A stretch of DNA of 61,605 bases from the NCBI GenBank assembly GCA_035620555.1, contig DASPGQ010000226.1, positions 1 to 61,605 on the forward strand, given 5' to 3'. Made by a program: the position numbers and the translations under genes. Under the pieces are notes generated by a model. That model did not search any database. It was not told the DNA's origin and saw only the letters and a program-made list of their open reading frames with translations. Below are positions 2,234 through 37,396 of this stretch, piece after piece. This stretch comes from Vicinamibacteria bacterium (lineage in GTDB: Bacteria > Acidobacteriota > Vicinamibacteria > Marinacidobacterales > SMYC01). Position 1 is the first letter of the stretch. Every line of letters starts with the position of its first letter.

Positions 2234-3310
2234 ATGGACTCCGACGAAGAGCGGCTCGCGGCCTGGGTCCTGTCGCGAGCCCGGTTGCCGCGGACAGCCG
2301 ACCCCTGGGACGCGATCGAATCGGCGGGAAGCTGCGCCGGCGCGCTACAGGGTCTTGCTCCCGTCGTGCCGATCGGGGTGCGCGACGCCGCGGCGCGTTC
2401 CTTCGAAAGAGCGGAAAAGGAGGGCTATCGCATCGTGGCGCTGACCGAACCGAGCTATCCGCGGCTCTTGAGGCAGATCTTCGATCCTCCGATCGCTCTA
2501 TCGGTCTGGGGCACGCTTCGGCCGGAAGATGCGCTCGGCATCTCGATCGTCGGCTCGAGGCGACCGACATCCTACGGGCTTGCCGCGAGCCGCCGGCTTT
2601 CGCGGGATCTGGCTCGTGCGGGACTCGCGATCACAAGCGGGCTCGCGCGGGGCATCGACGCTTCGGCCCATCGAGGAGCCCTCGAAGAAGGCGGGCGCAC
2701 GCTGGCCGTGCTCGGCTCCGGCCTCTGCAGTCTCTATCCGCGCGAGCACCGGCGGCTCGCCGAGGAGATCGCGACATCTGGAGCCGTCCTTTCGGAGTTC
2801 GATTTGAACGAGCCTCCTCTCGGTCGGAATTTCCCCCGGCGAAACCGGGTCATTTCCGGCCTCACCCTGGGGACGATCGTCGTCGAGGCGGCGACCAAGA
2901 GCGGCTCGCTCGTCTCGGCGCGCCTCGCCGCCGACCAGAACCGCGATGTTTTCGCCGTGCCCGGACCCATCGACTCGACCACGAGCGAAGGAGCCCACGA
3001 GCTGATCCGAGACGGTGCACGCCTCGTCGGCCGAGCCGAGCACGTTCTCGAGGAGCTTCGCGAGGACGTTCGAGAGGCTCTGAGAATCAAGGCCTCTCCC
3101 CGGACGGCCCCGACGGCGCCCGAGCTCGACGAGGACGAGAACGCCGTCGTGAGGGCTCTGCGGCAGTCCCTCACGCGACCGCTCGACGTGGACGAGCTTC
3201 TCGAAGCGGTCGCGCTTCCGACCGAGCGCACGCTCGCGGCGCTTTCCCGGCTCGAGGTGGCGAGACGCGTCCGGCGCCACCCCGACGGGCGCTACCGGCC
3301 GGAAATTTGA
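2234..3310 (+). CDS. dprA: DNA processing protein DprA (Smf)
   Basis: Motifs GSRRPTSYG, GLARGIDASAHRGALEEGGRTLAVLGSGL, NFPRRNRVISGL, KSGSLVSARLAADQNRDVFAVPG, and a C-terminal winged-helix-like tail. Confidence 0.9.
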   Translation: MDSDEERLAAWVLSRARLPRTADPWDAIESAGSCAGALQGLAPVVPIGVRDAAARSFERAEKEGYRIVALTEPSYPRLLRQIFDPPIALSVWGTLRPEDALGISIVGSRRPTSYGLAASRRLSRDLARAGLAITSGLARGIDASAHRGALEEGGRTLAVLGSGLCSLYPREHRRLAEEIATSGAVLSEFDLNEPPLGRNFPRRNRVISGLTLGTIVVEAATKSGSLVSARLAADQNRDVFAVPGPIDSTTSEGAHELIRDGARLVGRAEHVLEELREDVREALRIKASPRTAPTAPELDEDENAVVRALRQSLTRPLDVDELLEAVALPTERTLAALSRLEVARRVRRHPDGRYRPEI

Positions 3311-3353
3311 CGCGATGCCGGGTCGCGTGCCACCATATCGCTACACGATTCCC

Positions 3354-5849
3354 ATGACGAAGTCACTCGTGATCGTCGAATCGCCGGCGAAGGCGAAGAC
3401 CATCAACAAGTTTCTCGGACGCAACTACGTCGTACGAGCCTCGATGGGCCATGTCCGCGACCTCCCCAAGAGCAAGCTCGGCGTCGACGTCGAGCACGGA
3501 TTCCAGCCGGACTACGTGGTCATTCCCAAGAAGAAGAAGGTGCTCTCCGAGCTCAAGGAGGAAGCGAAGAAGGCGACTGCCATCTACCTCGCTCCCGACC
3601 CCGACCGCGAAGGTGAGGCCATCAGCTTCCACCTGGCCGAGGAGCTCCAGGCCAAGAACGGCGCCGTCCACCGGGTCCTGTTCAACGAGATCACGAAGAA
3701 GGCGGTGGAAGAGGCCATCCGCAATCCCAAGAGAATCGACCGGGACAAGGTCGACGCGCAGCAGGCGCGCCGAGTCCTCGACCGGCTCGTGGGCTACCAG
3801 ATTTCTCCTCTGCTCTGGGAGAAGGTCCGGCGGGGGCTCTCCGCCGGTAGGGTGCAATCGGTGGCGCTGCGCATCGTCTGCGAGCGCGAGCGGGACATCC
3901 AGGCGTTCCAGTCCGAGGAGTACTGGTCGATCCACGCCGACCTGGAGGCAAAGACTCCCCCAGGCTTCATCGCGAAGCTCACCCGGATCGACGGCAACGC
4001 CGCCGAGCTGAAGGACGAGGCGACGACGCGGGCGATCGCCGACGAGCTCTCCCATCTCGATTTCACCGTCAAGACGGTCACCGCGAAGGAGCGGCGCCGC
4101 AAGCCGGTGCCTCCCTTCATCACCAGCAAGCTTCAGCAGGAGGGGGCGCGCAAGCTCGGCTTCACCGCGAAGCGGACGATGATCGTCGCCCAGCGTCTCT
4201 ACGAGGGAATCGAGCTCGGGAGCGAAGGACCGGTCGGTCTCATCACTTACATGCGCACCGACTCGACCCGCATCGCCAACGAGGCTCTCGACGAGGCCCG
4301 TCAATTCGTCGAAGAGAAATATGGCCGGGATCTGCTTCCCGACAAACCGAACATCTACAAGAGCAAGAAGGGCGCCCAGGACGCCCACGAGGCGATTCGG
4401 CCCACCTCGGTTTATCGAGACCCCGACTCCATAGCGCCCTATCTCGACCGCGACGAGCTCAAGCTCTATCGGCTCATCTGGAACCGGTTCGTGGCCTCTC
4501 AGATGGCGCCCGCTTTGTTCGACGAGACCATCGCCGAGATCGAGGCGGGACGATACATCCTGCGGGCGCGGGGGTCGGTGCTCAAGTTCAAGGGCTTCCT
4601 CGCGGTCTACGAGGAGGGGAAGGACGAAGACACTTCCCCGAAGGCCACCGCGGAGGAAAGAGAGGAAGAAGAGTCCAGAGAAGACGGCAAGGACAAGAAG
4701 CTCCCGCCGCTTTCGGAGGGCGAGCTCTTGAAGCTGCTCGGAGTCCAGCCGGAGCAGCATTTCACCCAGCCGCCGCCTCGATTCACCGAGGCGTCGCTCG
4801 TGAAAGAGCTGGAGGAAAAAGGCATCGGCCGGCCGAGCACCTACGCCAGCATCCTCTCGGTTCTCCAGGATCGACAATACGTACAGAAGATCGAACGGAA
4901 GTTCGTTCCCACCGAGCTCGGATTCCTCGTCACCGATCTGCTGATGGGAAGCTTCGCCGACATCATGGAGATCGAGTACACCGCCAAGCTCGAAGGGATG
5001 CTCGACGAGATCGAGGAGGGTCGGGCCAACTACCTCACGACGATCGACGGCTTCTACCAGAAGTTCAGCAAGGACCTGACCGAAGCCAAGAAGCACATGA
5101 CCAACGTCAAGGCCATGGAGATTGCCACCGAAGAGAAGTGCGACAAATGCGGCAAGCCCATGGTCATCAAATGGGGGCGATTCGGTCACTTTCTGGCCTG
5201 TTCCGGTTATCCCGAGTGCCGCAACACCCGCGAGATCCAGAATTACCAGGACAAAGAATCCGCCGACCCCGACGCGTTCTCCGAAGAGACCTGCGAAAAA
5301 TGCGACAGGCCCATGGTGCTGAAGAAAGGCCGCTATGGCCAGTTCCTCGCCTGCTCCGGCTACCCCGAGTGCAAGAACACCCGGAAGATCTTCAAGGGCA
5401 AGGACGGCTCGCTCGAGACGAAGCGCGACCAGCTGCTCGACGAGACCTGCCCGAAGTGCGGCTCCCGGCTCGTCGTGAAGCATGGACGCTACGGCGAGTT
5501 CACCGCCTGCAGCTCCTATCCCGACTGCAAGTACATCAAGCAGAAAGAGGTCGGCGTCGCCTGCCCCAGGGAAGACTGCCCCGGGCAGGTGGTCGAGCGT
5601 CGTTCGAGGCGCGGCAAGCTCTTCTTCGGGTGCTCGCAGTACCCCGATTGCGATTTCACCAGCTGGCACAAGCCCGTGGCCGAACCCTGCCCCGAGTGCG
5701 GCTATCCCGTCCTGTTCGAGAAATCGACCAAGCGCGACGGGGCCCACTACGCCTGCACCGAGGAAGGCTGCGGATACAAGCGAAGCATCGACGGCGGAGC
5801 CCCGGACGCCGTGAAGGAGCCAGACCCCGAAGAGGTCGCCGCGAAGTAA
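3354..5849 (+). CDS. topA: DNA topoisomerase I with five C-terminal Zn-ribbon repeats
   Basis: MTKSLVIVESPAKAKTINKFLG Toprim start, then GYITYMRTDS-type active-site region (LITYMRTDSTRI). Five CxxC...C..C modules (for example CDKCGKPMVIKWGRFGHFLACSGYPEC). The track ORF starts at 3315; ATG 3354 matches the usual family N-terminus, and either start is possible. Confidence 0.93.
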   Translation: MTKSLVIVESPAKAKTINKFLGRNYVVRASMGHVRDLPKSKLGVDVEHGFQPDYVVIPKKKKVLSELKEEAKKATAIYLAPDPDREGEAISFHLAEELQAKNGAVHRVLFNEITKKAVEEAIRNPKRIDRDKVDAQQARRVLDRLVGYQISPLLWEKVRRGLSAGRVQSVALRIVCERERDIQAFQSEEYWSIHADLEAKTPPGFIAKLTRIDGNAAELKDEATTRAIADELSHLDFTVKTVTAKERRRKPVPPFITSKLQQEGARKLGFTAKRTMIVAQRLYEGIELGSEGPVGLITYMRTDSTRIANEALDEARQFVEEKYGRDLLPDKPNIYKSKKGAQDAHEAIRPTSVYRDPDSIAPYLDRDELKLYRLIWNRFVASQMAPALFDETIAEIEAGRYILRARGSVLKFKGFLAVYEEGKDEDTSPKATAEEREEEESREDGKDKKLPPLSEGELLKLLGVQPEQHFTQPPPRFTEASLVKELEEKGIGRPSTYASILSVLQDRQYVQKIERKFVPTELGFLVTDLLMGSFADIMEIEYTAKLEGMLDEIEEGRANYLTTIDGFYQKFSKDLTEAKKHMTNVKAMEIATEEKCDKCGKPMVIKWGRFGHFLACSGYPECRNTREIQNYQDKESADPDAFSEETCEKCDRPMVLKKGRYGQFLACSGYPECKNTRKIFKGKDGSLETKRDQLLDETCPKCGSRLVVKHGRYGEFTACSSYPDCKYIKQKEVGVACPREDCPGQVVERRSRRGKLFFGCSQYPDCDFTSWHKPVAEPCPECGYPVLFEKSTKRDGAHYACTEEGCGYKRSIDGGAPDAVKEPDPEEVAAK

Positions 5850-5855
5850 AGGCGC

Positions 5856-7172
5856 TTGAGCTCGAGCGAAGTTGCCGTGGTGGGCGCCGGTCTCGCCGGC
5901 TCGGAGGCGGCCTGGCAGCTCGCCAAGCGAGGCATTCCCGTACGCCTCTACGAGATGCGGCCTTTGGTCACGACGCCCGTTCACCGCACCGAGGGTTTCG
6001 CCGAGCTCGTCTGCAGCAACTCCCTGCGCTCCGATTCTTTGAATAGCGCACACGGGCTTCTCAAAGAAGAAATGCGCCGGCTCGGATCGCTCGTCATGGA
6101 AGCGGCCGAGCTCGCCCGCGTACCCGCGGGGCAGGCGCTCGCCGTCGATCGCGATCGGTTCTCCGAACACGTGACCCGGGCCGTACGGTCCGTTTCGGGG
6201 ATCACGTTCTTGCGGGAGGAAGTGCGCGCCGTTTCCGACGGCGGGCTCGTGATACTCGCGACCGGACCGCTCACTTCGGAGACCCTGGCGAGCTCGATCC
6301 GTACATTCACCGGTCGCGACTCCCTGTACTTCTACGACGCGGTGAGCCCGGTGGTTGAAGTGGAGAGCATCGACTTCAGCAAAGCCTTCCGCGCATCGCG
6401 TTACGGGAAGGGTGGAGACGACTACGTCAATTGTCCCATGGACCGGGTCGAGTACCTCCGTTTTCACGAGGCCTTGTCTGCCGCGGCGCGGGTCGATCTC
6501 CACGCCATCGACCAGGCACTCTACTTCGAGGGTTGCCTCCCCATCGAGGTCATGGCCCAGCGCGGGATCGACACCCTGCGGTACGGACCGATGAAACCCG
6601 TCGGCTTGATCGATCCCCGAACGGGAAAAAGACCTTACGCCGCGGTGCAGCTTCGACAAGACAACCTGGCGGCGACGCTCTACAACATCGTCGGTTTCCA
6701 AAACCAGTTGAAGTGGGGCGAGCAGAAGCGGATTCTGCGGATGATTCCCGGCCTCGAGCGCGCCGAGTTCTCCCGCTACGGAATGATTCATCGCAACACC
6801 TACGTCAACGCGCCCACTCTGCTCCGGCCGACTTTTCAGACACGCACGAGAGATTCGCTCTTTTTCGCGGGACAGATCTCGGGCGTCGAGGGCTATACGG
6901 AATCGGCCGCATCCGGGCTTCTCGCCGGCATCAATGCGGCGCGGTTGTCGCGGGGACTCGTTCCGGTCGTGCCACCGAGAACCACGGCTCTCGGCTCGCT
7001 TTGCCACTACATCTCGGAGGCCGATCCCGAGAATTACCAGCCGACGAACATCGCCTTCGGGCTTCTGCCGCCGCTCGAGACCCGCGTCAAGAGCCGGAGA
7101 GAACGCAAAGAAGCGCTGGTCGCACGCGCTCTCGCCGCCATGGACCGCTTCGTCGAAACGGCCGCAGCATGA
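5856..7172 (+). CDS. trmFO: Methylenetetrahydrofolate--tRNA-(uracil-5-)-methyltransferase TrmFO (Gid)
   Basis: TTG start. VAVVGAGLAGSEAAWQLAKRG FAD-binding fold, then TEGFAELVCSNSLRS, then FAGQISGVEGYTESAASGLLAG. Confidence 0.9.
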   Translation: MSSSEVAVVGAGLAGSEAAWQLAKRGIPVRLYEMRPLVTTPVHRTEGFAELVCSNSLRSDSLNSAHGLLKEEMRRLGSLVMEAAELARVPAGQALAVDRDRFSEHVTRAVRSVSGITFLREEVRAVSDGGLVILATGPLTSETLASSIRTFTGRDSLYFYDAVSPVVEVESIDFSKAFRASRYGKGGDDYVNCPMDRVEYLRFHEALSAAARVDLHAIDQALYFEGCLPIEVMAQRGIDTLRYGPMKPVGLIDPRTGKRPYAAVQLRQDNLAATLYNIVGFQNQLKWGEQKRILRMIPGLERAEFSRYGMIHRNTYVNAPTLLRPTFQTRTRDSLFFAGQISGVEGYTESAASGLLAGINAARLSRGLVPVVPPRTTALGSLCHYISEADPENYQPTNIAFGLLPPLETRVKSRRERKEALVARALAAMDRFVETAAA

Positions 7173-8059
7173 GGCGCGACATCGACGCTTTCGCGGAGGA
7201 TCTGCGATACCGCCGTGGTCTCTCCGTGCACACCGTCGCGAGCTATCGCTCGGATCTCGAGCAGCTCGAAGTCTTTCTCGCCGAAGCGCTTACGGTCACC
7301 CGGGTCGAGGACGTGGACGTTCTCGCCCTCCGAGCCTTCCTCGCGCATTTGCACCAAGCGGGCGCCGCTCGCTCCTCGGTCGCGCGCAAGCTCGCCGCCA
7401 TACGAACGTTCTTCCGCTACCTGAATCGAGAAGGGCGGCTCACGAAGAACCCCGCTCGGCTCGTGGGAACGCCCCGGCTCGACAAGAAGATCCCGATGCG
7501 AATCGAGGAGGCCGAGGTAGAGCGTCTGCTCGATGCTCCCGATTCATCGACCCCCTTGGGACGCCGCGACCGTGCACTGCTCGAGCTTCTTTATGCAACC
7601 GGCCTCCGGGTGGGTGAGCTCGTTTCGCTCGACCTCGCGGAGGTCGATCTCGAATCACGTCTTGTCCGCGTCGTCGGAAAGGGCGGCAAGGAGCGCATCG
7701 TGCCGTTCGGTGAGCCCGCCGCGGAGGCGGTCCGGCATTACTTGCCCGACCGCCAGAAGCTCGTCCGCCTCGGCCGCGGCACCGACGCGTTGATCCTCAA
7801 CGCCCGGGGAGGGCGACTGACGGCCCGTAGCGTACGTCGTTTGGTCGACCGGTACCTCAGGCTGACGGCCCTCCGAAAGGGGCTCTCGCCTCACAGCCTC
7901 CGTCATGCCTTCGCAACCCATCTTCTCGAGCGGGGTTGCGATCTCCGCTCCATTCAGGAGCTTCTCGGTCACCAGAGCCTCTCGACCACGCAGAAGTACA
8001 CGACCCTATCGGCCCAGCGGTTGCTCGACGTCTACGAAAAGGCGCATCCCAAGGCTTGA
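7169..8059 (+). CDS. xerC: Tyrosine recombinase XerC/XerD family
   Basis: Track ORF 6431..8059 trimmed to ATG 7169, which overlaps the trmFO stop (ATGA). N-terminal SAM-like domain (LSVHTVASYRSDLEQL). Catalytic signature ATGLRVGELVSL, HSLRHAFATHLLERGCDLRSIQELLGHQSLSTTQKYT. Confidence 0.9.
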   Translation: MRRDIDAFAEDLRYRRGLSVHTVASYRSDLEQLEVFLAEALTVTRVEDVDVLALRAFLAHLHQAGAARSSVARKLAAIRTFFRYLNREGRLTKNPARLVGTPRLDKKIPMRIEEAEVERLLDAPDSSTPLGRRDRALLELLYATGLRVGELVSLDLAEVDLESRLVRVVGKGGKERIVPFGEPAAEAVRHYLPDRQKLVRLGRGTDALILNARGGRLTARSVRRLVDRYLRLTALRKGLSPHSLRHAFATHLLERGCDLRSIQELLGHQSLSTTQKYTTLSAQRLLDVYEKAHPKA

Positions 8060-8072
8060 AAGGCCCGAGGAC

Positions 8073-9425
8073 CTATTGGGTCTGCTCGAGGATGTCCTCG
8101 GCTCCCAGGATCACCAGGCATGGAATGGCCACACCATTCAACTGCGCCGGCGTGAACTTGGCACGAATCACCGACATCAGAACGACGGGAGCCCAGCTCT
8201 CAGCGGCTCTCGTGAGGTGAGCGGCCACGACGCGTCCCTGGTGGTCGATCAAAATCGCGAATCCTCCGCTCGAACCGCGCCGCGATCGCATCGTGCTCGG
8301 CGGTTTGACGATACCACTGATGGCTTCGGGAGGCTCGTAACGCCCGGTGGCCGCCTTGAGGGCGAGAGCGTAGGGCATCAAGTCGTGGAGCAGGTAGTCG
8401 AAGTTCGACTCGAAGGCCGATTCGAAGGCGGCGGCGGCGAGCCCGGCCTCGCCGGCAAGAGCATGATGGTAGCCGATGTGCAAGCTCGCCTCGGCGTCGT
8501 TGGGCACCGCCTCGGCAAGGGCCCGATAAAGGCCGACGGCGTCGGCCGCGTTGCCGTTCTGAGCGTGAGCCCGCGCGAGAAGCCGCAGGGCCCGCCAGTT
8601 CTCGGGGTCTCCCAGCAATACTTCCCCCAGCTCCCGGATGGCCGCAGGATATTGTCGGTCACCGAGGAAGGCCTCGCCGATCAGAAGACGAAAGGTCGAG
8701 CGCTCGTCGTCCGTCGTGGGGAGCTGAGTCTGGAGCCAGGCGATCGCCTGTCGGAACTTACCTTCGGCAATGTAGTCCCGTGCCCGATCGATCGGATCGT
8801 CGAGGGCGGCCGTCAGGGCAGGACTGCCCGATCTCGGCTTGAGGAAGAAATAACGCTCGGGCGCGACGCCCTCTTCAACGAGGCTCGCGACGAGCCGCGG
8901 ATGGGTAAATCTCATGTGCTCCCATGCGTCGACGAACTCGTCGATGATCTCGAGCTCGTGCCCCTCGTAGACGATCCCGCTCCTTCCGACGCTCGAGCGG
9001 AGCGTTCCCAGATACAACGGCATCTCGGTGACGACGGGAAAAGTGGGAAACCCGTCGTCGGCAGACGGCTTGAGGGCATAGCGCTGCTTCACCGGCGGGT
9101 AGCGGTCGGGCTTCATCGGTCGGATCGGCGCAATGTAGACGGCCTCGATCGCCAGGATCTCGTAGGTGCCGGTGGGGAGGGCCGCCCGGAAATAGCCGAG
9201 CCCTTGATCCACGTCGATGACGTGCTCTTCGTTCGTCGTCTCCCGCCGCACGCGGAGCTTCCGCCCACGATAGTCCGGCCCGTCGAAGCGTCCTTCCAGC
9301 CGGCCGAACACGAACGAGCTTCCGGCGGCACGAAGGGATGCCCAGGTGGTCTCGACCTCGAGCTCGTCCGAGAGAACCGAGGAAGCCAGAGACAGAGCCA
9401 GGCTCGTCAGGAGAGCGCTCCGCAT
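8073..9425 (-). CDS. Secreted TPR protein with a tentative TonB-C-like C-terminal domain
   Basis: ORF 8073..9530 trimmed to ATG 9425 (MRSALLTSLALSLASSVLS signal peptide). Central TPR-like helices (AIRELGEVLLGDPENWRALRLLARAHAQNGNAADAVGLYRALAEA). The tail GGFAILIDHQGRVVAAHL...KFTPAQLNGVAIP resembles TonB_C. Confidence 0.6.
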   Translation of the reverse strand: MRSALLTSLALSLASSVLSDELEVETTWASLRAAGSSFVFGRLEGRFDGPDYRGRKLRVRRETTNEEHVIDVDQGLGYFRAALPTGTYEILAIEAVYIAPIRPMKPDRYPPVKQRYALKPSADDGFPTFPVVTEMPLYLGTLRSSVGRSGIVYEGHELEIIDEFVDAWEHMRFTHPRLVASLVEEGVAPERYFFLKPRSGSPALTAALDDPIDRARDYIAEGKFRQAIAWLQTQLPTTDDERSTFRLLIGEAFLGDRQYPAAIRELGEVLLGDPENWRALRLLARAHAQNGNAADAVGLYRALAEAVPNDAEASLHIGYHHALAGEAGLAAAAFESAFESNFDYLLHDLMPYALALKAATGRYEPPEAISGIVKPPSTMRSRRGSSGGFAILIDHQGRVVAAHLTRAAESWAPVVLMSVIRAKFTPAQLNGVAIPCLVILGAEDILEQTQ

Positions 9426-28590: not shown

Positions 28591-29007
28591 CTAGCCGGAA
28601 AGGAAGCGCTCGAAGATCGCGCGGAGCTCGTCGTCGAGCGCAACCGGCTCGAAGCTGTCCAGATCGACGAGAACCGTAGTGATGTCGGCGTGGAACGTGA
28701 GCGTGCCATCGCGTTTTCGGCGAATGTCGTAGGCGAAGGTCACCGACGAGCGACCGATCCGGCGAACGACGAGCTCCACGATCGCGACGTCCCCGTAGGC
28801 GAGAGGAGCCTTGAACTCGCTCGTGATCGCGACGGTGGGAAACCCCAGTCTCCTTTCGGCCACCAGGGAAGGGTAAGAGAGCGGCGCCGCCGTGTCGAAA
28901 AAGTCCTCGAAGGCCGCGTGACAGATATGGAAGAACTGGGGGTAATAGACGATTCCTGCCCCATCGACGTCGTCGAAGCGAATTTTCTGTACGCTGACGA
29001 AGGCCAG
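28591..29007 (-). CDS. 4HBT/YbgC-type acyl-CoA thioesterase (hotdog fold) with a non-canonical start
   Basis: The track lists only 28591..28863 (GTG). The same frame stays open upstream and encodes the essential N-terminal part of the fold: ELAFVSVQKIRFDDVDGAGIVYYPQFFHICHAAFEDFF. No ATG, GTG or TTG is available there. CTG 29007 sits 1 nt after the GWxTD stop. Confidence 0.6.
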   Translation of the reverse strand: MAFVSVQKIRFDDVDGAGIVYYPQFFHICHAAFEDFFDTAAPLSYPSLVAERRLGFPTVAITSEFKAPLAYGDVAIVELVVRRIGRSSVTFAYDIRRKRDGTLTFHADITTVLVDLDSFEPVALDDELRAIFERFLSG

Positions 29008-29008
29008 C

Positions 29009-31093
29009 TCAGGAGCCTTTCGACTGACCGAGAGAAGAGAGTCGCTCTTTCACGGTCGCCTGCTCGGGATCGAGCTCGAGCGAGCGTTCGAAGGCTTCCC
29101 GGGCGCGATCGAGATCGCCGAGCCGCAGATGGCTATCCCCGAGTGTATTGAGGAGCATGGTATCGGCAGGGCGGATCTGCCGGGCGCGATCGAGGTAGGA
29201 AGCCGCCTTCGAGAAGTCTCCCTTGAGGTAAAAAGCGAAACCCAGCCCGGAAACGACATCGTACTGGCCGGGAAACGGCTCTTCGAGGGGAAGGAGCAGG
29301 CCGAGCGCTTCGTCGGGCTTTTCCTCGCGAAGATAGGCATGGGCGAGCTTCCAGCGAGCATCGGGCAACCGGGGGTTTCCGGTGGCGACCGCCTTTTCGA
29401 GCGCCGCTTTGGCCTCGTCGAAACGACCCAGGTTCCAGAGCTGTTCTCCCCTGATGAAGTCGAGCAGTCCTGGCACCCGGGTGTTGAAACCTCTGCGGTA
29501 TACGAACGCCGGCCGACTCGCGGCGGAGCGCGGCGAGATGGTCACCGGCACGCTCTTCTCGGAGACGACGCCGCCGTCTCCGGAGAGGAGCCGGGCGGTC
29601 AGCTCGTAATTGCCGCCGACCATCTCGTCGAGCCGGATGTGGTCCAGGACCATTCCGCCGGCGCCGACGCTCGCGTCCAGGGATTTGGCAACCTCCTCCC
29701 CGTTCGCGAGCTCCAAGCGAACCTTCTGACCCGGGCCGGCGCCAAAAGCCTGAACGATGACGTGGACCGTATCGCCGATCACGAAAAGGTTGTCGCTCGC
29801 CGGAAGAAAGCGGGTGGGGCCGACTTGAAACGTGCGAATCTCGTCGTCGGCGATGTCCTTCGCGTCCACGAGCTGGGTATCGAACGCGAGCACGACGTCG
29901 CCCACGAATGCCGGGCTCGCTTCGGGGTCACGAATGCTCAGCTCCCTCTCCGCCACGGTGTACTGATGAATGACGCGGTTTCTCACGACGACGGTCACGG
30001 TGTAGTCGCCGGGAACTAGCGGGAACCCGTCCTGGTAGGCAAAGGGAAAGGCCTTGATCTGATCGACCTGACTCGGGGTGAGCTCGACGTAGGCCTCCTT
30101 GTCGTTTGCGACGACCAGGGATCCCTCTTTGGTCCGTGCTTCGATGGTGACGTCGAGCGTCGTGTAGTACTTGGACTGATTCTCGTCGGTCTCCAAGGTG
30201 AAATTCTGCGGATCGATCTCGACGCTGAACTGCACGACCGGGGTCCCACCCGGCTCGTACAGCACGGCGAAGCTGGAGCGCGACGGAACGAAGTTGAACG
30301 AGTACTCCGCCGAGACGCGATTCCCGTAGCGGAGCCAGGCATCGGCGTAGTCGGTGCGAATCGCTCTCTTGGGCGAGTCCTCGATCCGGGCGAGCATCAT
30401 CTCGGTGCCAAGCGAGGGACGTCCGGTGGTGAAGTCCGGCGGCTCGCTCGTGTCGAACGACAACGAGGCCGCCGCCAGCTCCGGGGATATCTGGCGGAGC
30501 GCTTCGACCGCGGGAGCGTTCTCGGAGCCCGGGGTGAACTGGCTTCCGGTCATCAGAGCCTGAGGACCGTCGACGATAGGATGATAGAGACGATACTCTC
30601 CGATGTCGTTCCTCTTGAAGAACATCAGATAGAAGAAGGAAGGAACACCCAGCAGCGGGTCCCCTTGATAGAACCACAGCTCGGTCGACACGATCTCGGA
30701 ATAGCCTTCGTAACGCTGTGTCTCCCGGGGCTCGCCGAGCAGGATGTAGTAACGACCGCGGTCCGTCCGCCAGCCTTCGCGGAAAGTCTCGCGGCCGAGA
30801 TAAGTATTGGCGTGATCGATGCGTCGGTAGTGCTCGTCCCTGTATTCGTTCGCCGGTGTCGCGGGGTTGGGATCGCGCTTGCGCCAGAAGGCCTCGATGA
30901 ACCGCTCGCGCTCCTCCTCGGTCTCGAGAGACAAAAAGACGTCGCGCTCTCGCTCGGTGATGATGTAGACGACGTCGCGCTCCAGCCAGGAGCGGTGAGC
31001 TTCCGAGAGTCGATCGACGCGGTCGTCCGCCCCGAGGACCGGGGCGATCAGAACGAGCGCGACGAGAAATGCCGGGGCGTTGAAGCTTACCAT
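29009..31093 (-). CDS. GWxTD domain protein with C-terminal TPR repeats (secreted)
   Basis: Signal peptide MVSFNAPAFLVALVLIAPVLGA. FIEAFWRKRDP...REGWRTDRGRYYILLGEP is the GWxTD signature. TPR repeats at the C-terminus. Confidence 0.85.
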   Translation of the reverse strand: MVSFNAPAFLVALVLIAPVLGADDRVDRLSEAHRSWLERDVVYIITERERDVFLSLETEEERERFIEAFWRKRDPNPATPANEYRDEHYRRIDHANTYLGRETFREGWRTDRGRYYILLGEPRETQRYEGYSEIVSTELWFYQGDPLLGVPSFFYLMFFKRNDIGEYRLYHPIVDGPQALMTGSQFTPGSENAPAVEALRQISPELAAASLSFDTSEPPDFTTGRPSLGTEMMLARIEDSPKRAIRTDYADAWLRYGNRVSAEYSFNFVPSRSSFAVLYEPGGTPVVQFSVEIDPQNFTLETDENQSKYYTTLDVTIEARTKEGSLVVANDKEAYVELTPSQVDQIKAFPFAYQDGFPLVPGDYTVTVVVRNRVIHQYTVAERELSIRDPEASPAFVGDVVLAFDTQLVDAKDIADDEIRTFQVGPTRFLPASDNLFVIGDTVHVIVQAFGAGPGQKVRLELANGEEVAKSLDASVGAGGMVLDHIRLDEMVGGNYELTARLLSGDGGVVSEKSVPVTISPRSAASRPAFVYRRGFNTRVPGLLDFIRGEQLWNLGRFDEAKAALEKAVATGNPRLPDARWKLAHAYLREEKPDEALGLLLPLEEPFPGQYDVVSGLGFAFYLKGDFSKAASYLDRARQIRPADTMLLNTLGDSHLRLGDLDRAREAFERSLELDPEQATVKERLSSLGQSKGS

Positions 31094-31100
31094 CTCGAGC

Positions 31101-32504
31101 TCAGCGTGTGGAGGACGGTTCCTTCCTCTCGAGCGAGATATTATAGCGCTTGATCATCTCGTTCAGCGTGGTGGGCTTGAGTCCCAGCAGCTCGGCGGCC
31201 TTTTTCTGCACTCCGCCCGAGGTTTCCAGGCTCGACTCGATGAGGCGTTTCTCCACGGCGTGGATGACATCGCGAAAATCGATTCCCTCTTCGGGAACCA
31301 CGACATTGGGCAATCGGAATGTCGGGCCCGAGCGCACGTGTTCGGGAATCAGGCGCCGATCGATCACCGATCCCTCGGCGAGAACCACGGCCCGCTCGAT
31401 GACGTTCTCGAGCTCCCTCACGTTGCCGGGCCAATCGTAGTCCAGCAGCGATTGAATCGCTTCGCTGGACAGCTCGAGGAGCGGACGGCCGTTCTCCTCA
31501 CCGTACTTCTTCAAGAAGTGCTGAGCGAGGATCGGGATATCTTCCCGCCGCTGGCGCAGGGCGGGGAGCAGTACATTGATGACGTTGAGACGGTAATAGA
31601 GGTCCTCGCGAAACCTGCCCGCGTCGACCAGGGACTTGAGGTCGCTGTTGGTCGCGGCGATGACCCGGACGTCCACTCGGATCGTGTCGACCCCACCGAG
31701 CCTCATGAACTCGCGCTCCTGAATGACTCGCAGGAGCTTCGCCTGAGTCTCGAGTGGCACCGTGCCAATCTCGTCGAGGAAAATGCTCCCCCCGTCCGCA
31801 ACCTCGAAGAGGCCCTTCTTTGGACTGACCGCCCCGGTGAAAGCGCCCTTCACGTGACCGAAGAGATTGCTTTCGAGGAGATCGGGGGGCAGGTTCCCCG
31901 AGTTCACCGGTACGAACTGCTTGGCTCGGCGAGCACTGTGATTGTGTATGGCTTTCGCCACCAGCTCCTTTCCGGTACCGCTCTCACCGGTAATGAGCAC
32001 GGTGCTCTTGGAAGGGGCGATCTGCTGGATCAGGGAATATACGTCCTGCATTCGCGGCGACTTGCCGACGAGCACGTCGAATCGCTGCCGGTCGGAGAGC
32101 GCCTGCCTCAACGAGCGGTTCTCGTCGACCAGCCGGCGCTGTCCCACTCCTTTGGAAACGACGACGCGGACTTCCTCGTTCTTGAACGGTTTGGTGACGT
32201 AATCGAACGCACCACGTTTCATCGCTTCGATGGCGGTCTCGACCGATGCATAGGCGGTGATCATCACCACGACGAGCTCGGGGTCGGCCTTCTTCAGCTC
32301 GTCGAGCACCTCGATGCCGGAACGGTCGGGCAGCATGACGTCGACGATTGCCAGGTCAACCGGCTCCCGGTTGGCGATGGAAAGGCCCTCCCCGCCCGTC
32401 GAAGCGAGCTTGACGCGATAACCTTCCTGAGTCAGCAGCGAGCCCAGGATCTCCCGCATCACGTCCTCGTCGTCGACGACGAGGATGGTTCCCGCGTCAG
32501 ACAT
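31101..32504 (-). CDS. Sigma-54-dependent response regulator (NtrC family: REC + AAA+ + Fis-type HTH)
   Basis: ORF trimmed to ATG 32504, which overlaps the kinase stop (ATGTCTGA). ILVVDDEDVMREIL...DLAIVDVMLPD (REC), GESGTGKE (Walker A), GAFTGA (sigma-54 contact loop), C-terminal AAELLGLKPTTLNEMIKRYNI. Confidence 0.92.
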   Translation of the reverse strand: MSDAGTILVVDDEDVMREILGSLLTQEGYRVKLASTGGEGLSIANREPVDLAIVDVMLPDRSGIEVLDELKKADPELVVVMITAYASVETAIEAMKRGAFDYVTKPFKNEEVRVVVSKGVGQRRLVDENRSLRQALSDRQRFDVLVGKSPRMQDVYSLIQQIAPSKSTVLITGESGTGKELVAKAIHNHSARRAKQFVPVNSGNLPPDLLESNLFGHVKGAFTGAVSPKKGLFEVADGGSIFLDEIGTVPLETQAKLLRVIQEREFMRLGGVDTIRVDVRVIAATNSDLKSLVDAGRFREDLYYRLNVINVLLPALRQRREDIPILAQHFLKKYGEENGRPLLELSSEAIQSLLDYDWPGNVRELENVIERAVVLAEGSVIDRRLIPEHVRSGPTFRLPNVVVPEEGIDFRDVIHAVEKRLIESSLETSGGVQKKAAELLGLKPTTLNEMIKRYNISLERKEPSSTR

Positions 32505-35400
32505 GCTTCGACACGCCGGCCGTGCGGTTCGCCCGCACGAGGTCATCGGCACCGGGAGCCCGGACTCGGTTGTGAGTCGGGAGAAGCAAACGGAAGCTCG
32601 TTCCCTGGTCGACGGCGCTCTCCACTGCGATCTGCCCCGAATGCTCCTGGATGATCCCGTAAGTGATGGAGAGTCCGAGACCGGTCCCACTCGCCCCGGC
32701 CCGCTTCGTCGTGAAGAACGGATCGTAGATCCGCTTGACATCCTCCTGGCGGATTCCGAGACCGGTATCCGATACGGACACCGACACATTGTCCCCTTCG
32801 GTCGCGGTTCGAATGCTCAGCCACCCCCCGGATGGCATGGCATCCTGAGCATTCAAGATCAGGTTCAGGAAGACTTGTTGAAGTTTGTTCTCGTCTCCGA
32901 GCACGTCGGCGAGATCCTCGCCGAGATCCAGCCGGACCTTGATCCGCGCTCGAGTGAGCTGGTGCTCCAGCAGCGACAGAACGTCGCGCACCACGTCGTT
33001 CAGCTTGACGGGGACGAGACTGGATCGGCCCTGCCGCGCGAAATTGAGCAGATTGTTGACGATCTTCGAGGCGCGCTCCGTTTGGCGCTCGATCTTGTGA
33101 AGAAGCTCGGACCGGGGATCGGACTCGGTCGTCTGGTCCCGGAGCATTTGAGTGAAGCTGCTGATTCCCGTGAGGGGGGTGTTGATCTCGTGGGCGACAC
33201 CGGCGGCGAGGAGACCGAGAGAAGCCATCTTCTCGCGAAGTTGCAGCTGGGTCTCGAGCTCGACCCTCAGGGTGATGTCTTCGAAAATGACGATCGTTCC
33301 TTCCGGCCGTTCGTCGCTGGTGAGGAAGGGAGCTACCTGTAGCTTGACGACCTTCTTCTCCTGGCGCATGTTCTGCAGGTTGAGACGCGCGATGCCGCTC
33401 GTCTCCGCCGTCTTCCACCAATCCGCGCCCATCGAAGATCTCAACGCCTCGCGCAGCGGCTCGGGGAAGATGTCGTTGAAGCTCCTCCCGAGCGCCCGAT
33501 CCCGCGGCAGTCCGTAGAATTTCTCCAGCGCGCGGTTCCAGCGAACCACGGTGCCCTCGAGATCGACCACGAGGATTCCGGTCTCCAGAGACTCGATGGT
33601 GTTCTCGCTATGCTCCTTCAGGGCCTCGAACTCGCTCGCTTTACGCTGGAGCGAGCGATACAAACTCGCGTTCTCGAGCGCGGTGGCGGCCTGCGCCGAA
33701 AGCATGACGAGCAGATCCATGTCCTCGCTCGTGAGCGAGCTCTCGTCCCACCTCCGACCCAGCAGGATCACGCCGACCACCTTGCCGTGCGAGCAGCAGG
33801 GAATCGCGTAGGAAAGTCCGGAGATATCGAGGCTCTCGAAGGCTCCGTTCGCCGTGCCCAGCTCCGTCTCGCCCGAATAGACCGCTTCGCCCTCCGACAG
33901 CCGCCGGTAGAGCGAAGACCCTTCCGAAAGCCTCGTGCTCCGCCACTCGCTCTCGCTGAGCCCCCGTCCCGCTTGAACCGCGAGGCCCTCTTCGGAAGAC
34001 GCCGCGAGAAGCGCCACCTTGTCCACCTCGAAAGTGTCTCCGATGCGATCGACGAGCCTCGAGGAGAGCCGATCGAGGTCGAGGTGGGAGTTGAGGTCTC
34101 TCGAGAGCGCCATGAGCGCGCGCCGGTAGTCGTAGCGCTCCCGATAGAAGAGCCGGTCGATACCGACCTGAATTCGGCTCTTGATTGGCGTGAACACCAG
34201 AACCACGATGAGCGCCGCGAGTACCGCCAAGATCGTGGAGTGCTCGTCGCCCACCATGTAGTGGGCGCCCGCGAGGAAGATCGCCAGATAGAGACTGCCC
34301 ACGGCCGCGGTCGCGAGGGTGAAGACCATGCCGCGTTTGAACAGCACCTCCACGTCCATCAGGCGGTACTTGACGATGGCATAGGCGAAGGAAAGCGGGA
34401 TGAGCGCCAGGGGGACGACCGAAAGTTGCATCGTGAGCCCGGGCGCCACTCCGAGGAGATAGGGAATCGCGTAGAACAGGGCGAAGGGAAGCACTCCCAG
34501 GGCGGTGCCCCACACGATCCATTTAGTCTGCTTCTTTACCGTGATGCGTGTCGCATTGCGCTGGGTGTCGACGAACGCGATCAGAGCCGAGACCGACATG
34601 ACCGCGACGAAGGTGGGCAGGATCCGATCGAGGAAGTCGTGGGCATCGATGAGGAACCGATCCCCCCAGGCGAGCGGAGAGAAGAACGCAACCCCCGCGG
34701 CCAGGCTCAAATAGAGCAGGATCGCCGACGGCGCATAGATTGCCCAGAGGATCCATGGGTGCCTGATTACGAGAGTCTTCTTGTCGGGAAAGCACAGAGC
34801 GAAATGCAGAAAGATGGGCGGGAAGAACAACAATCCCGAAAGCTCCATCGAGAAGAACGCGCGGTCCCACCCGTCGAGCTCGCCGGTGAAGGAGAACCCG
34901 TAGGCGAGAAACCAGAACAGGCAGAGCATGTAGAAGTGGGCGGTCGCCGCTTCGCCCCTCCGGCGAACGTAGACGACCGTCCCCACCGCCAGACAGAAGA
35001 TCCCCACCGCGGCGAGGAAGTAGTACGCGGGGACGTTTCCCGTGGGAAGAGGGGTGACGGTCAAGGCCAGCGCCTCGCGGGTATCCTCCCTCAGAATCTG
35101 GTACCGGAGCAGCTGACCCGCACGGGAAGCGTCGAGAGCTTCTCGGACGGCGGCGGCTCGCTCGACCGGCTCGTCTTCGATCAGAACGAGAATGTCGCCT
35201 GGTTGCAGGCCCGCTCGATCCCCCGGACCGTTGGGATCGATGCGTTTGGCGTACACGCGGCCCGCCTGCTCGTCCCAGAAAACGCCGTCGTCGAGGAGCT
35301 CGAAGCGGTTCTTTTCGCGAATGTTATGGAGCGCGCAGGCAAGCAGAAGAGTGCTCGTGATGATCACGAGGCCGATCTTCCACGAACCGAAACGCTCCAT
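32497..35400 (-). CDS. Sensor histidine kinase: TM - periplasmic PDZ - polytopic membrane domain - GAF - PAS - HisKA - HATPase
   Basis: ORF trimmed to ATG 35400. PDZ-like segment GRVYAKRIDPNGPGDRAGLQPGDILVLIEDEPV between TM1 and a block of about 8-10 TM helices. H-box AAGVAHEINTPLTGI. N and G boxes LNLILNAQDAM, DTGLGI, GTGLGLS. Confidence 0.88.
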   Translation of the reverse strand: MERFGSWKIGLVIITSTLLLACALHNIREKNRFELLDDGVFWDEQAGRVYAKRIDPNGPGDRAGLQPGDILVLIEDEPVERAAAVREALDASRAGQLLRYQILREDTREALALTVTPLPTGNVPAYYFLAAVGIFCLAVGTVVYVRRRGEAATAHFYMLCLFWFLAYGFSFTGELDGWDRAFFSMELSGLLFFPPIFLHFALCFPDKKTLVIRHPWILWAIYAPSAILLYLSLAAGVAFFSPLAWGDRFLIDAHDFLDRILPTFVAVMSVSALIAFVDTQRNATRITVKKQTKWIVWGTALGVLPFALFYAIPYLLGVAPGLTMQLSVVPLALIPLSFAYAIVKYRLMDVEVLFKRGMVFTLATAAVGSLYLAIFLAGAHYMVGDEHSTILAVLAALIVVLVFTPIKSRIQVGIDRLFYRERYDYRRALMALSRDLNSHLDLDRLSSRLVDRIGDTFEVDKVALLAASSEEGLAVQAGRGLSESEWRSTRLSEGSSLYRRLSEGEAVYSGETELGTANGAFESLDISGLSYAIPCCSHGKVVGVILLGRRWDESSLTSEDMDLLVMLSAQAATALENASLYRSLQRKASEFEALKEHSENTIESLETGILVVDLEGTVVRWNRALEKFYGLPRDRALGRSFNDIFPEPLREALRSSMGADWWKTAETSGIARLNLQNMRQEKKVVKLQVAPFLTSDERPEGTIVIFEDITLRVELETQLQLREKMASLGLLAAGVAHEINTPLTGISSFTQMLRDQTTESDPRSELLHKIERQTERASKIVNNLLNFARQGRSSLVPVKLNDVVRDVLSLLEHQLTRARIKVRLDLGEDLADVLGDENKLQQVFLNLILNAQDAMPSGGWLSIRTATEGDNVSVSVSDTGLGIRQEDVKRIYDPFFTTKRAGASGTGLGLSITYGIIQEHSGQIAVESAVDQGTSFRLLLPTHNRVRAPGADDLVRANRTAGVSKHV

Positions 35401-35486: not shown

Positions 35487-35502
35487 AGCAATTCTCGTTC
35501 CT
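35487..35502 (-). promoter_or_regulatory. Candidate sigma-54 (-24/-12) promoter upstream of the kinase-regulator operon
   Basis: The minus strand reads AGGAACGAGAATTGCT, against the consensus TGGCACG-N4-TTGCW. GG and GC have the correct spacing, and 10 of 12 specified positions match. It lies 87 nt upstream of ATG 35400. Confidence 0.45.
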
Positions 35503-35644
35503 CCTCATACCCCGATACGAGGTGGATAAGCTATTCTAGCAAAGGGAGTTAATACTTGGTACCTGTCGCACCCCCAATCAAGTGTCCACATATTTGGATC
35601 CAGCATCCAAAAAGCAGGATCCGGGTTTGGGGGAAGAATCGACG

Positions 35645-37396
35645 TCAGAAACGAACGGTGACGCCCCCGAGAACGCGCCGGGGGGCGTCGATGACTGCGA
35701 ACTCGTCCAGCAGGGACGACTTCTCCAGGTCTTCGTAGAAAAGATTGCGCACCGCGACCATGAGCTCCCAACGCGTTCCGTTCCACCCGACGAACGGCAG
35801 CAGCTGGTAGACCTGGACGCTGAAACGGGTATCCAGCTCGCGTCCCGGTGTGAAACCTTTCCGGAGCGTCGCGATCTTGGGGTGGGCGATGACCCGGTAC
35901 GCCGCGTGCAGTCGCGTCCGCGTGCGCTCGATCGAAGTCGCCAGGGTGGTCGTCACGTCGTGGATGTCCTCTCCCGAAGCGAAGCCAAAGGCCTCGTCGC
36001 CGGGAAGGGTCGACAGACTCTGCGCGCGTCCGAACGTGTAACCGACGGTCCCTTCCATCTCGCCCAGATTCTGAAACAAGGACACGCCGATGCCCCGGGT
36101 CTGGAAGTCACCCCGATTCGAGACTCGAAAGTGACCTCCGCCGGACCCCGCTCCACTCTCCGTAAACGTCTTGACGAGCTGAGCTTCCGCGTCCTCTTCG
36201 AAGAGCCTCACGGCGACACGTGTGCGCTCCGAGAGCTGCTGCTCGAGGCCGACCTCGAAGCGAGCCGTCCTTTCCGCGCGAAGGCCCCGATTCGCCGGCA
36301 CCGGCCCATACACGTCGGAGTACGCCACCTGGGACAGGAGGCCGATGTCCTCGCCTCCCGGTGCTTGGATGTGATAATCCACCTTGCCGCGAAGCACGGT
36401 CGTCTCGCCCAGGATGGGCCGGGTGACTTCGATCCGCGGCGACCAGTAGCCAGAGGTATCCAGATAATCGAAATGCTGGTAGGAAAGATTCGTCGACACC
36501 GAGGTCGAGCCCAGGAGAAAGGTATCCGATGCGTAGAGGCTGCCGAACCACTCGGTCGTGCCGGTTGTCGAAACCCCTTTGATGAGGCCGGCCTCCGGCG
36601 GACGAAACCCCTGCACATCGCCGTAGAGATAGTTGCCATAGCTCACGCCACCGGCGACGCGGTGCCCGGAGAGCTCTCCCGTTACGTACTCCGCCCGGCC
36701 CGCCCAGGAGGAAAGTGCCGATTCGAGGAGTTGGGCGCTGACGAACCAGTGCCCGTCCCCTCCGGTGGGAATGAACAGCCGTGCGTACGCGAGCCGTGCA
36801 TCCAGCCCAGCCCCGGCCCCGGGAAACTCGGAGAGTCCCTGTTCGAAATCGGCGGCTCGCACGCCGAGCTCACCGCTGAAGGAAAACGCCGGTTCGTACG
36901 AGTCGCCCCGCGTCTCCAATGTGGTGACGGGAATCCACCGATCCTCTTCCCTGAGGATGTTCCGATCAGCGTGCTGAAGGATCCACTTGAGTTCCGCCAA
37001 GGTGCGCTCTTCGTTCGCTTCGACGTGAACCGTTGGCTCGTCCTGGGTCGACGAAAGACTCATCAGGATCGAGCCCACCTCCTCCGCGCCTTCCTCGACC
37101 ACCACTTTCGTAAACGGCGAAGGGAAGAACCCCTGGAGGTAAGCTCGCAGGCGATAGAGCCCAGGTGGAATGCCAGCGAGAGAGAACCGCCCCTCCTCGT
37201 CCGTAATCGCGGTGCGGGCACCGAGAACGAGATTGTGGCCGAACAACGAGACGATCGCCCCGACGAGGGGCTGGCCCTGCTCGTCGCCGACGAAGCCGGC
37301 AAGCTCGGTGACAGGCGACTCGGTCTCGGCGAGCGCGGTTGCGCTCAGAGCGAGCCCGATCAAGGAAGCCATCAGGACCTTCCGGGCTGCGGTCAT
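35645..37396 (-). CDS. Outer-membrane beta-barrel protein with an N-terminal CarboxypepD_reg-like domain (TonB-dependent-receptor-like, no obvious plug)
   Basis: ORF trimmed to ATG 37396. Signal peptide MTAARKVLMASLIGLALSATALA. GFVGDEQGQPLVGAIVSLFG...DEEGRFSLAGIPPGLYRLRAY. Alternating beta-strand pattern. The terminal ...LGGVTVRF ends in an aromatic residue, typical of OMPs. Confidence 0.75.
   Translation of the reverse strand: MTAARKVLMASLIGLALSATALAETESPVTELAGFVGDEQGQPLVGAIVSLFGHNLVLGARTAITDEEGRFSLAGIPPGLYRLRAYLQGFFPSPFTKVVVEEGAEEVGSILMSLSSTQDEPTVHVEANEERTLAELKWILQHADRNILREEDRWIPVTTLETRGDSYEPAFSFSGELGVRAADFEQGLSEFPGAGAGLDARLAYARLFIPTGGDGHWFVSAQLLESALSSWAGRAEYVTGELSGHRVAGGVSYGNYLYGDVQGFRPPEAGLIKGVSTTGTTEWFGSLYASDTFLLGSTSVSTNLSYQHFDYLDTSGYWSPRIEVTRPILGETTVLRGKVDYHIQAPGGEDIGLLSQVAYSDVYGPVPANRGLRAERTARFEVGLEQQLSERTRVAVRLFEEDAEAQLVKTFTESGAGSGGGHFRVSNRGDFQTRGIGVSLFQNLGEMEGTVGYTFGRAQSLSTLPGDEAFGFASGEDIHDVTTTLATSIERTRTRLHAAYRVIAHPKIATLRKGFTPGRELDTRFSVQVYQLLPFVGWNGTRWELMVAVRNLFYEDLEKSSLLDEFAVIDAPRRVLGGVTVRF

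Follow-up and report, generated by a model that had tools for sequence, protein, structure and literature searches.

A histidine kinase with a periplasmic PDZ domain and a conserved sigma-54 promoter in Acidobacteriota: a probable envelope-sensing two-component system

Background

What does a histidine kinase perceive through a PDZ domain placed in the periplasm, and which genes would it switch on in response? The question is raised by a group of genes in a Vicinamibacteria bacterium of the phylum Acidobacteriota (GenBank assembly GCA_035620555.1, contig DASPGQ010000226.1, positions 1 to 61,605; these 61,605 nucleotides are called the window below). A gene for such a kinase is preceded there by a gene for an outer-membrane barrel protein and followed by genes for an NtrC-type response regulator, a GWxTD protein with tetratricopeptide repeats (TPRs) and a thioesterase. 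A preliminary description made from the sequence had named these five genes. All five were confirmed, and all lie co-directionally on the minus strand; the range it gave, 29009-35400, contains neither the barrel gene nor the promoter nor the thioesterase.

The answer that we consider probable is that this is an autoregulated sigma-54 two-component system concerned with the envelope. No member of this PDZ-headed kinase system has been studied so far, and its signal is something that we infer. Acidobacteriota are among the most abundant soil bacteria and, to our knowledge, almost nothing is known of envelope sensing in them.

Results

The conserved core of the locus

The barrel gene, a sigma-54 promoter with an upstream dyad at a fixed distance, the kinase gene and the regulator gene constitute the conserved core. 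Within the window its features are as follows.

35645-37396, minus strand: outer-membrane barrel gene; the product has a signal peptide, a periplasmic CarboxypepD_reg sandwich and a plug-less barrel (Pfam and AlphaFold2 model)
35595-35609, minus strand: upstream activating dyad TGGAT-N5-ATCCA, a probable binding site for the activator
35487-35502, minus strand: sigma-54 -24/-12 promoter element AGGAACGAGAATTGCT, agreeing with the consensus at 9 of 11 positions
32497-35400, minus strand: sensor histidine kinase of 967 amino acids (Pfam), with the H-box AHEINTP, the N box and the G boxes present
35047-35298, minus strand: periplasmic PDZ domain, approximately residues 35-118 of the kinase (Pfam PDZ_6 and PDZ_2, AlphaFold2, Foldseek)
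34135-35034, minus strand: nine-helix, HisKA_7TM-like membrane block of the kinase (Pfam, hydropathy, AlphaFold2)
32575-34080, minus strand: cytoplasmic GAF, PAS, HisKA and HATPase_c parts of the kinase (Pfam)
31101-32471, minus strand: NtrC-type sigma-54 enhancer-binding response regulator of 456 amino acids (Pfam REC, Sigma54_activat, AAA_lid_14 and HTH_8)

An intergenic region of 244 nt separates the barrel and kinase genes. The G+C content of the window is 62-65%.

The sensor kinase and its PDZ domain

The kinase begins with a transmembrane helix (TM1), which is followed in order by the PDZ domain, nine further transmembrane helices, GAF, PAS and the kinase core. Pfam recognizes the PDZ domain with two models, PDZ_6 at 36.3 bits and PDZ_2 at 33.5 bits (cut-off 27 each), and the membrane block with HisKA_7TM (32.3 bits; cut-off 28.6). 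GAF_3, PAS_4, HisKA (PF00512) and HATPase_c are also above their cut-offs. According to hydropathy and positive-inside analysis, TM1 occupies approximately residues 9-27, a loop of 99 residues holds the PDZ domain, and the nine helices come next. All loops rich in lysine and arginine lie on the cytoplasmic side. The PDZ domain is therefore placed on the outside, in the periplasm, and everything from GAF through PAS to the kinase core in the cytoplasm. With 53 sequences as input, AlphaFold2 gave for residues 1-430 a model (mean predicted local distance difference test score, pLDDT, 78.8) that agrees with hydropathy on the layout. Hence both the PDZ assignment of the preliminary description and its placement of the domain between TM1 and a polytopic block hold. 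For the nine-helix block itself, neither a PDB sequence search nor Foldseek gave a matching solved structure, and in the literature we found HisKA_7TM only listed as a sensor domain.

To which PDZ domains is this one related? Its closest solved sequences are those of DegQ, DegP, DegS and HtrA2 (E-values of 7e-8 to 1e-3 in a PDB sequence search), with RseP and CtpA next. The top Foldseek matches are structures of DegS, including complexes with the YQF and YRF peptides of outer-membrane proteins (root-mean-square deviation 1.6-2.1 A over 85-90 residues), and AlgW, DegQ and CtpA are ranked after them. The domain is therefore of the HtrA/DegS type both in sequence and in fold. Pfam finds no protease domain in the kinase, so that it is not a protease of the DegS type. 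The most conserved element of the domain is DDGVxW, which comprises a loop and the first strand, and in which D38, G39 and W42 are invariant among the 53 sequences. This element sits where HtrA-type PDZ domains hold the carboxylate of the ligand. It is retained in homologues labelled Terriglobia, Bryobacterales and Aminicenantes at 34-41% identity and, as far as conservation can tell, the PDZ domain is under selection.

The regulator, its promoter and the dyad

The regulator belongs to the NtrC class, with a receiver, a Sigma54_activat domain and a Fis-type helix-turn-helix at 94.3, 237.4 and 38.9 bits (Pfam). The GAFTGA loop and the Walker A motif GESGTGKE are both visible in its sequence. 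The activator is thus intact, and rpoN is present in the genome.

Taken alone, a sigma-54 element is found at chance level within the window (19 matches versus 13 expected). Its conservation at this site was therefore compared among loci. At least 8 of the 11 positions are matched upstream of the kinase gene in 22 of 22 loci of the window's own clade (clade A) and in 34 of 35 loci of the most distant clade of Vicinamibacteria (clade C); at least 9 of 11 are matched in 16 of 20 loci of other acidobacterial families. In a control region, upstream of the barrel gene, a match of at least 8 of 11 occurs in 11 of 71 loci. This comparison argues that the element in the window is real. The dyad of the window, which is flanked by half-sites, has its start at -107 counted from the first base of the 16-nt element. 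Among 21 loci of clade A, 17 have the dyad starting at -106 to -108 relative to the element, and the 7.0-Mb genome contains only 4 exact copies of it. A conserved element preceded by a dyad at a fixed distance makes it most probable that the operon is switched on by its own activator; the last step, the binding of the dyad by this activator, is what we infer. The sigma-54 output supposed in the preliminary description is well supported by this arrangement before the kinase gene. We found no paper that links Vicinamibacteria with sigma-54.

Might other genes respond to the same activator? One copy of the dyad, in the stretch C662:2272-2535, is intergenic and stands 109 nt upstream of another sigma-54 element. 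The gene that follows encodes a protein with a signal peptide and runs off the contig. C372:1-330 is a weaker case, with a dyad matching at 9 of 10 positions at -120 from a sigma-54 element and, again, a gene running off the contig. No overlapping contig was found that would complete either gene, and the promoter DNA of C662 was not found in the genome of a close relative. In two relatives, L180 and L181, a site of the C662 type together with its sigma-54 element precedes a gene for a transporter-like outer-membrane protein with a CarboxypepD_reg domain, downstream of a TonB_C gene; the gene downstream of the C662 promoter was assigned through this neighbouring TonB_C gene. By their sequence, sites of the C662 and C372 types are candidate members of the regulon. 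The copy of the dyad at C362:9167 was dropped as a target, as it lies inside the coding region of a Ser/Thr kinase. With this promoter and dyad, a reporter is at hand and the regulon can be searched for by motif.

Distribution in Acidobacteriota

Full-length matches to a profile of the sensor part (residues 1-430) were obtained for 334 of the 401 Acidobacteriota genomes sampled and for 206 of 228 genera, with one copy in most genomes. In a library of 1.84 billion representative proteins, which covers metagenome protein space in clusters at 50% identity, there are 1,015 matches at E < 1e-30. The PDZ domain is retained in homologues from metagenome-assembled genomes labelled Terriglobia, Bryobacterales, Terracidiphilus and Aminicenantes, with a Pfam match in 9 of 10 tested. 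The regulator gene adjoins the kinase gene without exception, in 73 of 73 Vicinamibacteria loci with enough flanking sequence and in 20 of 20 loci of other families. A pair that is near-universal and usually single-copy in the phylum is likely to be a core regulatory circuit.

The barrel protein

The protein encoded upstream of the kinase carries a CarboxypepD_reg domain (47.8 bits, Pfam). In its AlphaFold2 model (pLDDT 70.7) this domain forms a sandwich, after which come a helix and a barrel of approximately 18-20 strands that has no plug. A PDB sequence search found nothing beyond the CarboxypepD_reg domain. A TonB-dependent transporter, with a plug, a TonB box and 22 strands, was considered and rejected: there is no Pfam match to Plug or TonB_dep_Rec, the number of strands is lower, and the Foldseek matches to barrels of such transporters are weak (TM scores of 0.3-0.38).

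In this genome there is one copy each of the barrel and of the sensor. Counted over Vicinamibacteria, 68 of 72 loci have the barrel gene as the next gene upstream of the kinase (20/20 in clade A, 16/20 in the middle clade, clade B, and 32/32 in clade C), as do, by profile, 12 of 20 loci of other acidobacterial families. The protein ends in ...PRRVLGGVTVRF, so the VTVRF terminus noticed in the preliminary description is indeed there. The terminal motif PR-x3-GG-x-x-x-x-F, usually ending in VRF, is retained in the family at an overall identity of 23-30%. We also tallied the endings of all open reading frames in the genome that have at least 200 amino acids, a terminal F and a beta-signal-like pattern. 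More of them end in hydrophobic-R-F than in any other way (13 of 46); R is by far the commonest penultimate residue, and VRF and FRF are the commonest terminal tripeptides.

Downstream and other neighbouring genes

Two further genes follow the regulator in the window.

29009-31093, minus strand: secreted GWxTD protein of 694 amino acids with C-terminal TPRs (TIGR04514, PF20094)
28591-29007, minus strand: hotdog thioesterase, 4HBT_2, YbgC/FadM-like (Pfam 4HBT_2), with a CTG start

The junctions from kinase to regulator, from regulator to GWxTD gene and from GWxTD gene to thioesterase are short spacers of 25, 7 and 1 nt and not overlaps; the preliminary description had spoken of overlapping or abutting stop and start codons.

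The GWxTD protein has a signal peptide and scores 105.9 bits with TIGR04514 (cut-off 28) and 54.6 bits with PF20094 (cut-off 26.9). A PDB sequence search found nothing beyond its TPRs, and no paper found in the literature contains the term 'GWxTD'. Its gene is linked after the regulator in 16 of 21 loci of clade A, 19 of 19 of clade B and 1 of 27 of clade C. In the last of these (loci L042-L078), a protein of 260-350 amino acids with DUF4388 (PF14332) takes its place after the regulator, for example at L067:14275-15333. In other families a GWxTD gene is present in only 2 of 20 loci, and there upstream, in the orders GWxTD-barrel-kinase-regulator and GWxTD-kinase-regulator. A regular linkage of GWxTD genes to the pair, as had been envisaged, is thus not borne out; within Vicinamibacteria it is a feature of two of the three clades. 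At least 14 GWxTD paralogues are encoded in the genome, and the copy in the window is the only one that adjoins an NtrC-type kinase-regulator pair; one other paralogue (C571) has an unrelated kinase and a receiver within 5 kb. Contigs with paralogues include C311, C817, C723, C78, C421, C435 and C631. Several paralogues adjoin genes for CarboxypepD_reg or transporter-like outer-membrane proteins; on C421 a GWxTD gene at 2781-4874 is followed by a gene for an outer-membrane protein of 1015 amino acids at 5134-8181. Such neighbours suggest that GWxTD proteins are linked with outer-membrane proteins in general. Given the clade-limited linkage and the paralogues beside such genes, the GWxTD protein looks like a periplasmic or secreted factor, associated with outer-membrane proteins, that was recruited by the regulon in some lineages.

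The thioesterase matches 4HBT_2 at 49.5 bits (cut-off 25.5) and falls below TIGR00051, the model of YbgC/FadM acyl-CoA thioesterases (55.7 bits versus 68.7). It has no ATG, GTG or TTG start. It begins with CTG (29007-29005), 1 nt past the stop codon of the GWxTD gene, and this CTG aligns codon for codon with the ATG, GTG or TTG starts of eight orthologues (MAFTS...). The closest relative, L001, with 95% kinase identity, also has CTG at this position. The gene is linked in 16 of 21 loci of clade A, in 0 of 19 of clade B and in 0 of 26 of clade C. Its linkage is thus confined to the window's own clade.

In other families the regulator is followed by genes for MlaE and MlaF, or by ExbB-ExbD-ExbD-TPR and then enolase (L081:6938-8594, L095:9486-12035). 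The downstream neighbours in those families differ and, to judge by their sequences, are all envelope-related.

Discussion

A proposed mechanism

How might such a system work? The kinase would reside in the inner membrane, with its DegS-type PDZ domain in the periplasm and its nine-helix block in the membrane. When outer-membrane proteins fail to insert, the PDZ domain would bind the beta-signal tails (...hydrophobic-R-F) exposed at their C-termini, and the prime candidate for a ligand would be the barrel protein encoded next door. Binding of a tail would alter the conformation of the helix block and, via GAF and PAS, turn on autophosphorylation. The phosphate would then move to the NtrC-type activator, which would bind TGGAT-N5-ATCCA, located some 107 nt ahead of the -24/-12 element, and drive sigma-54 transcription of its own operon, that is, of the genes for the kinase, the regulator, the GWxTD/TPR protein and the thioesterase. 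Probably it would also drive at least one gene for a transporter-like outer-membrane protein elsewhere in the genome.

The autoregulatory part of this scheme is supported by the intact activator, the conserved promoter, the fixed spacing of the dyad and its second site; its connection with the envelope, by the adjacent barrel gene and the envelope neighbours. For the sensing step, the support comes from the proximity of the PDZ domain to those of DegS, AlgW and DegQ in sequence and fold, with DegS complexes containing YQF and YRF peptides of outer-membrane proteins among its matches. The ligand and the direction of regulation are suppositions on our part. A specifically DegS-like mechanism, in which the PDZ domain reads the C-termini of outer-membrane proteins, is accordingly offered as a tentative suggestion, with a chance that we put a little short of even. 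If it is correct, sensing follows the same logic as in DegS but is coupled to a phosphorelay and sigma-54 where DegS uses regulated proteolysis. One could go further and propose that the kinase reads the tails of unassembled outer-membrane proteins, or a dedicated 'sentinel' barrel, so that a phosphorelay to sigma-54 replaces the proteolytic DegS-RseP-sigma-E cascade of Proteobacteria. This broader proposal we hold to be doubtful.

Several observations weigh against the scheme. In clade B, whose kinases are 48-52% identical, the sigma-54 element upstream of the kinase is missing, with at least 8 of 11 positions matched in only 2 of 20 loci; this clade seems to have lost autoregulation or to have rewired it. 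These are the marine or sponge-associated 'Marinacidobacterium' loci L023-L041, L073 and L079, which retain the genes for barrel, kinase, regulator and GWxTD protein. The barrel gene lies outside the sigma-54 operon, and in 8 of 20 loci of other families it is unlinked or undetected. Enolase is also syntenic, so conserved gene order may partly be inertia. The loop of the PDZ domain is D-D-G-V, invariant in the 53 sequences, and not the canonical hydrophobic-G-hydrophobic; binding of a carboxylate is therefore not assured. Finally, endings in ...RF are generic in this genome, so that such a tail is a general signature of outer-membrane proteins and does not single out the neighbouring barrel. 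The VTVRF ending, which the preliminary description had put forward in this connection, is accordingly rejected as a marker of a specific ligand.

Alternative explanations

Other readings of the same genes have to be weighed. The kinase and regulator could be the PrsK/PrsR pair of the PEP-CTERM/exosortase system, with the GWxTD/TPR protein as a partner similar to PrsT, to which it has a weak TPR match. The preliminary description had called for a comparison with the models of that pair, and both proteins score below the curated cut-offs: the kinase has 160.1 bits on TIGR02916 (cut-off 300) and the regulator 393.1 bits on TIGR02915 (cut-off 502.6). Moreover, the genome has a separate, true PrsK (C245:4688-6799, minus strand; 385.1 bits on TIGR02916), which has neither a PDZ nor a PAS domain. 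The two kinases align at 22% identity over the second half of the membrane block and GAF (E-value 9e-12) and at 29% over the kinase core. These partial alignments indicate a common chassis of HisKA_7TM, GAF and kinase core, to which the kinase of the window adds the TM1-PDZ head and PAS; the PrsK at C245 is its distant paralogue. The scores and the separate PrsK together refute the identity with PrsK/PrsR, to which we give next to no credence, and the kinase falls into no known, differently explained family. Alternatively, the kinase could be a receptor like ComP of Bacillus, with the PDZ domain and helix block binding a secreted peptide or a small hydrophobic diffusible signal in cell-cell or environmental signalling. 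The order of TM1, PDZ and nine helices would suit this. However, the core is of the HisKA type and is paired with a sigma-54 activator, where ComP has HisKA_3 and a NarL-type regulator. PF16927 has no match in the genome of Bacillus subtilis used as a control, and so gives no evidence that the membrane block is homologous to that of ComP. No gene for a small peptide or a prenyltransferase is seen in the conserved neighbourhood, nor are there comQ/comX-type neighbours at 28.5-39 kb of the window, and a near-universal single-copy system with a highly conserved PDZ domain is unlike the fast-diverging pherotype systems. Such a role appears quite improbable.

Two further alternatives stay closer to the envelope. 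The folded barrel might act as a co-sensor in a three-component, trans-envelope system, with its CarboxypepD_reg domain, or a ligand passing through the barrel, making contact with the PDZ domain of the kinase in the manner of QseG. The two genes are adjacent across the phylum, both proteins are single-copy, the N-terminal domain of the barrel protein is modelled as a separate sandwich that would lie at the periplasmic end, and QseE/QseG/QseF provide a precedent (PMC6075780). Yet HtrA-type PDZ domains normally bind free C-termini, and the C-terminus of the barrel protein is its last membrane strand. The adjacency, too, fails in those 8 of 20 loci of other families; two of the genomes that lack the linkage have their best barrel match elsewhere. 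We regard this as unlikely. Or else the signal (a lipid, a lipopolysaccharide precursor, an ion or membrane stress) might be sensed inside the membrane by the nine-helix block, the PDZ domain only capping the structure or acting as a negative regulator. H155, D179, H199 and Q291 are invariant within the helices, as are several Tyr. Such conserved polar residues point to the block as a possible site of primary sensing, which counts against sensing by the PDZ domain. The PrsK of this genome uses block and GAF without a PDZ domain, and MlaEF genes follow the regulator in one family. Against a passive cap speaks the occurrence of the PDZ domain throughout the phylum with an invariant motif at its binding strand, which argues for ligand binding, and we consider sensing by the block alone unlikely as well.

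Comparison with known systems

Among NtrC-class systems, AtoS/AtoC and ZraS/ZraR give the best NCBIfam matches, with 306.8 bits for AtoS (over the PAS-kinase part) and 475.9 bits for AtoC (regulator). All matches are below the equivalog cut-offs (646 and 714), the regulator being below every such cut-off in NCBIfam, and the sensor parts are unrelated. PrsK/PrsR share more, namely a polytopic HisKA_7TM-like block, GAF, the kinase core and a sigma-54 activator as partner; they differ in lacking the TM1-PDZ head and PAS and, as mentioned, the proteins of the window score below their cut-offs.

The layout of the sensor has a counterpart in ComP, the receptor kinase for the ComX pheromone of Bacillus, which starts with TM1, carries a PDZ domain in its first outer loop, continues with nine more helices and has both termini inside (PMC9620489). 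The kinase of the window has the same layout of TM1, extracytoplasmic PDZ domain and nine transmembrane helices by hydropathy and AlphaFold2. A ComP-type family of PDZ kinases has been listed by Muley et al. (PMC6411480). The preliminary description knew of no characterised system with this combination; that stands for the circuit as a whole, but not for the sensor layout, described for ComP. In other respects ComP is different, with its HisKA_3 core, its NarL-type regulator ComA, no PAS domain and a Gram-positive host that has no outer membrane.

For the sensing domain, the nearest precedent is DegS, which reads the hydrophobic-x-F C-termini of unassembled outer-membrane proteins. DegS and AlgW, of the sigma-E and AlgU pathways, likewise have a periplasmic PDZ domain of the HtrA type anchored in the inner membrane; theirs is the nearest solved fold, and one top-ranked Foldseek match is the complex of DegS with a YRF peptide. 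Unlike them, the kinase of the window has no protease domain and no RseA/RseP cascade, its PDZ domain is fused to a polytopic histidine kinase, its carboxylate loop is DDGV, and its output is a sigma-54 activator and not an extracytoplasmic function (ECF) sigma factor.

For the logic of the circuit, the nearest precedent is QseE(GlrK)/QseG/QseF(GlrR) of E. coli, where QseE is activated by QseG, a lipoprotein of the outer membrane, and in turn signals to QseF, a sigma-54 activator (PMC6075780). As a lipoprotein, QseG differs from the barrel; the periplasmic loop of QseE is simple and contains no PDZ domain; and the same paper describes the qseEGF operon as not autoregulated. In both cases, a kinase, a sigma-54 activator and a protein associated with the outer membrane are encoded together. 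The output of the Qse system acts through an upstream activating sequence in the service of envelope homeostasis, and that of the window probably does likewise.

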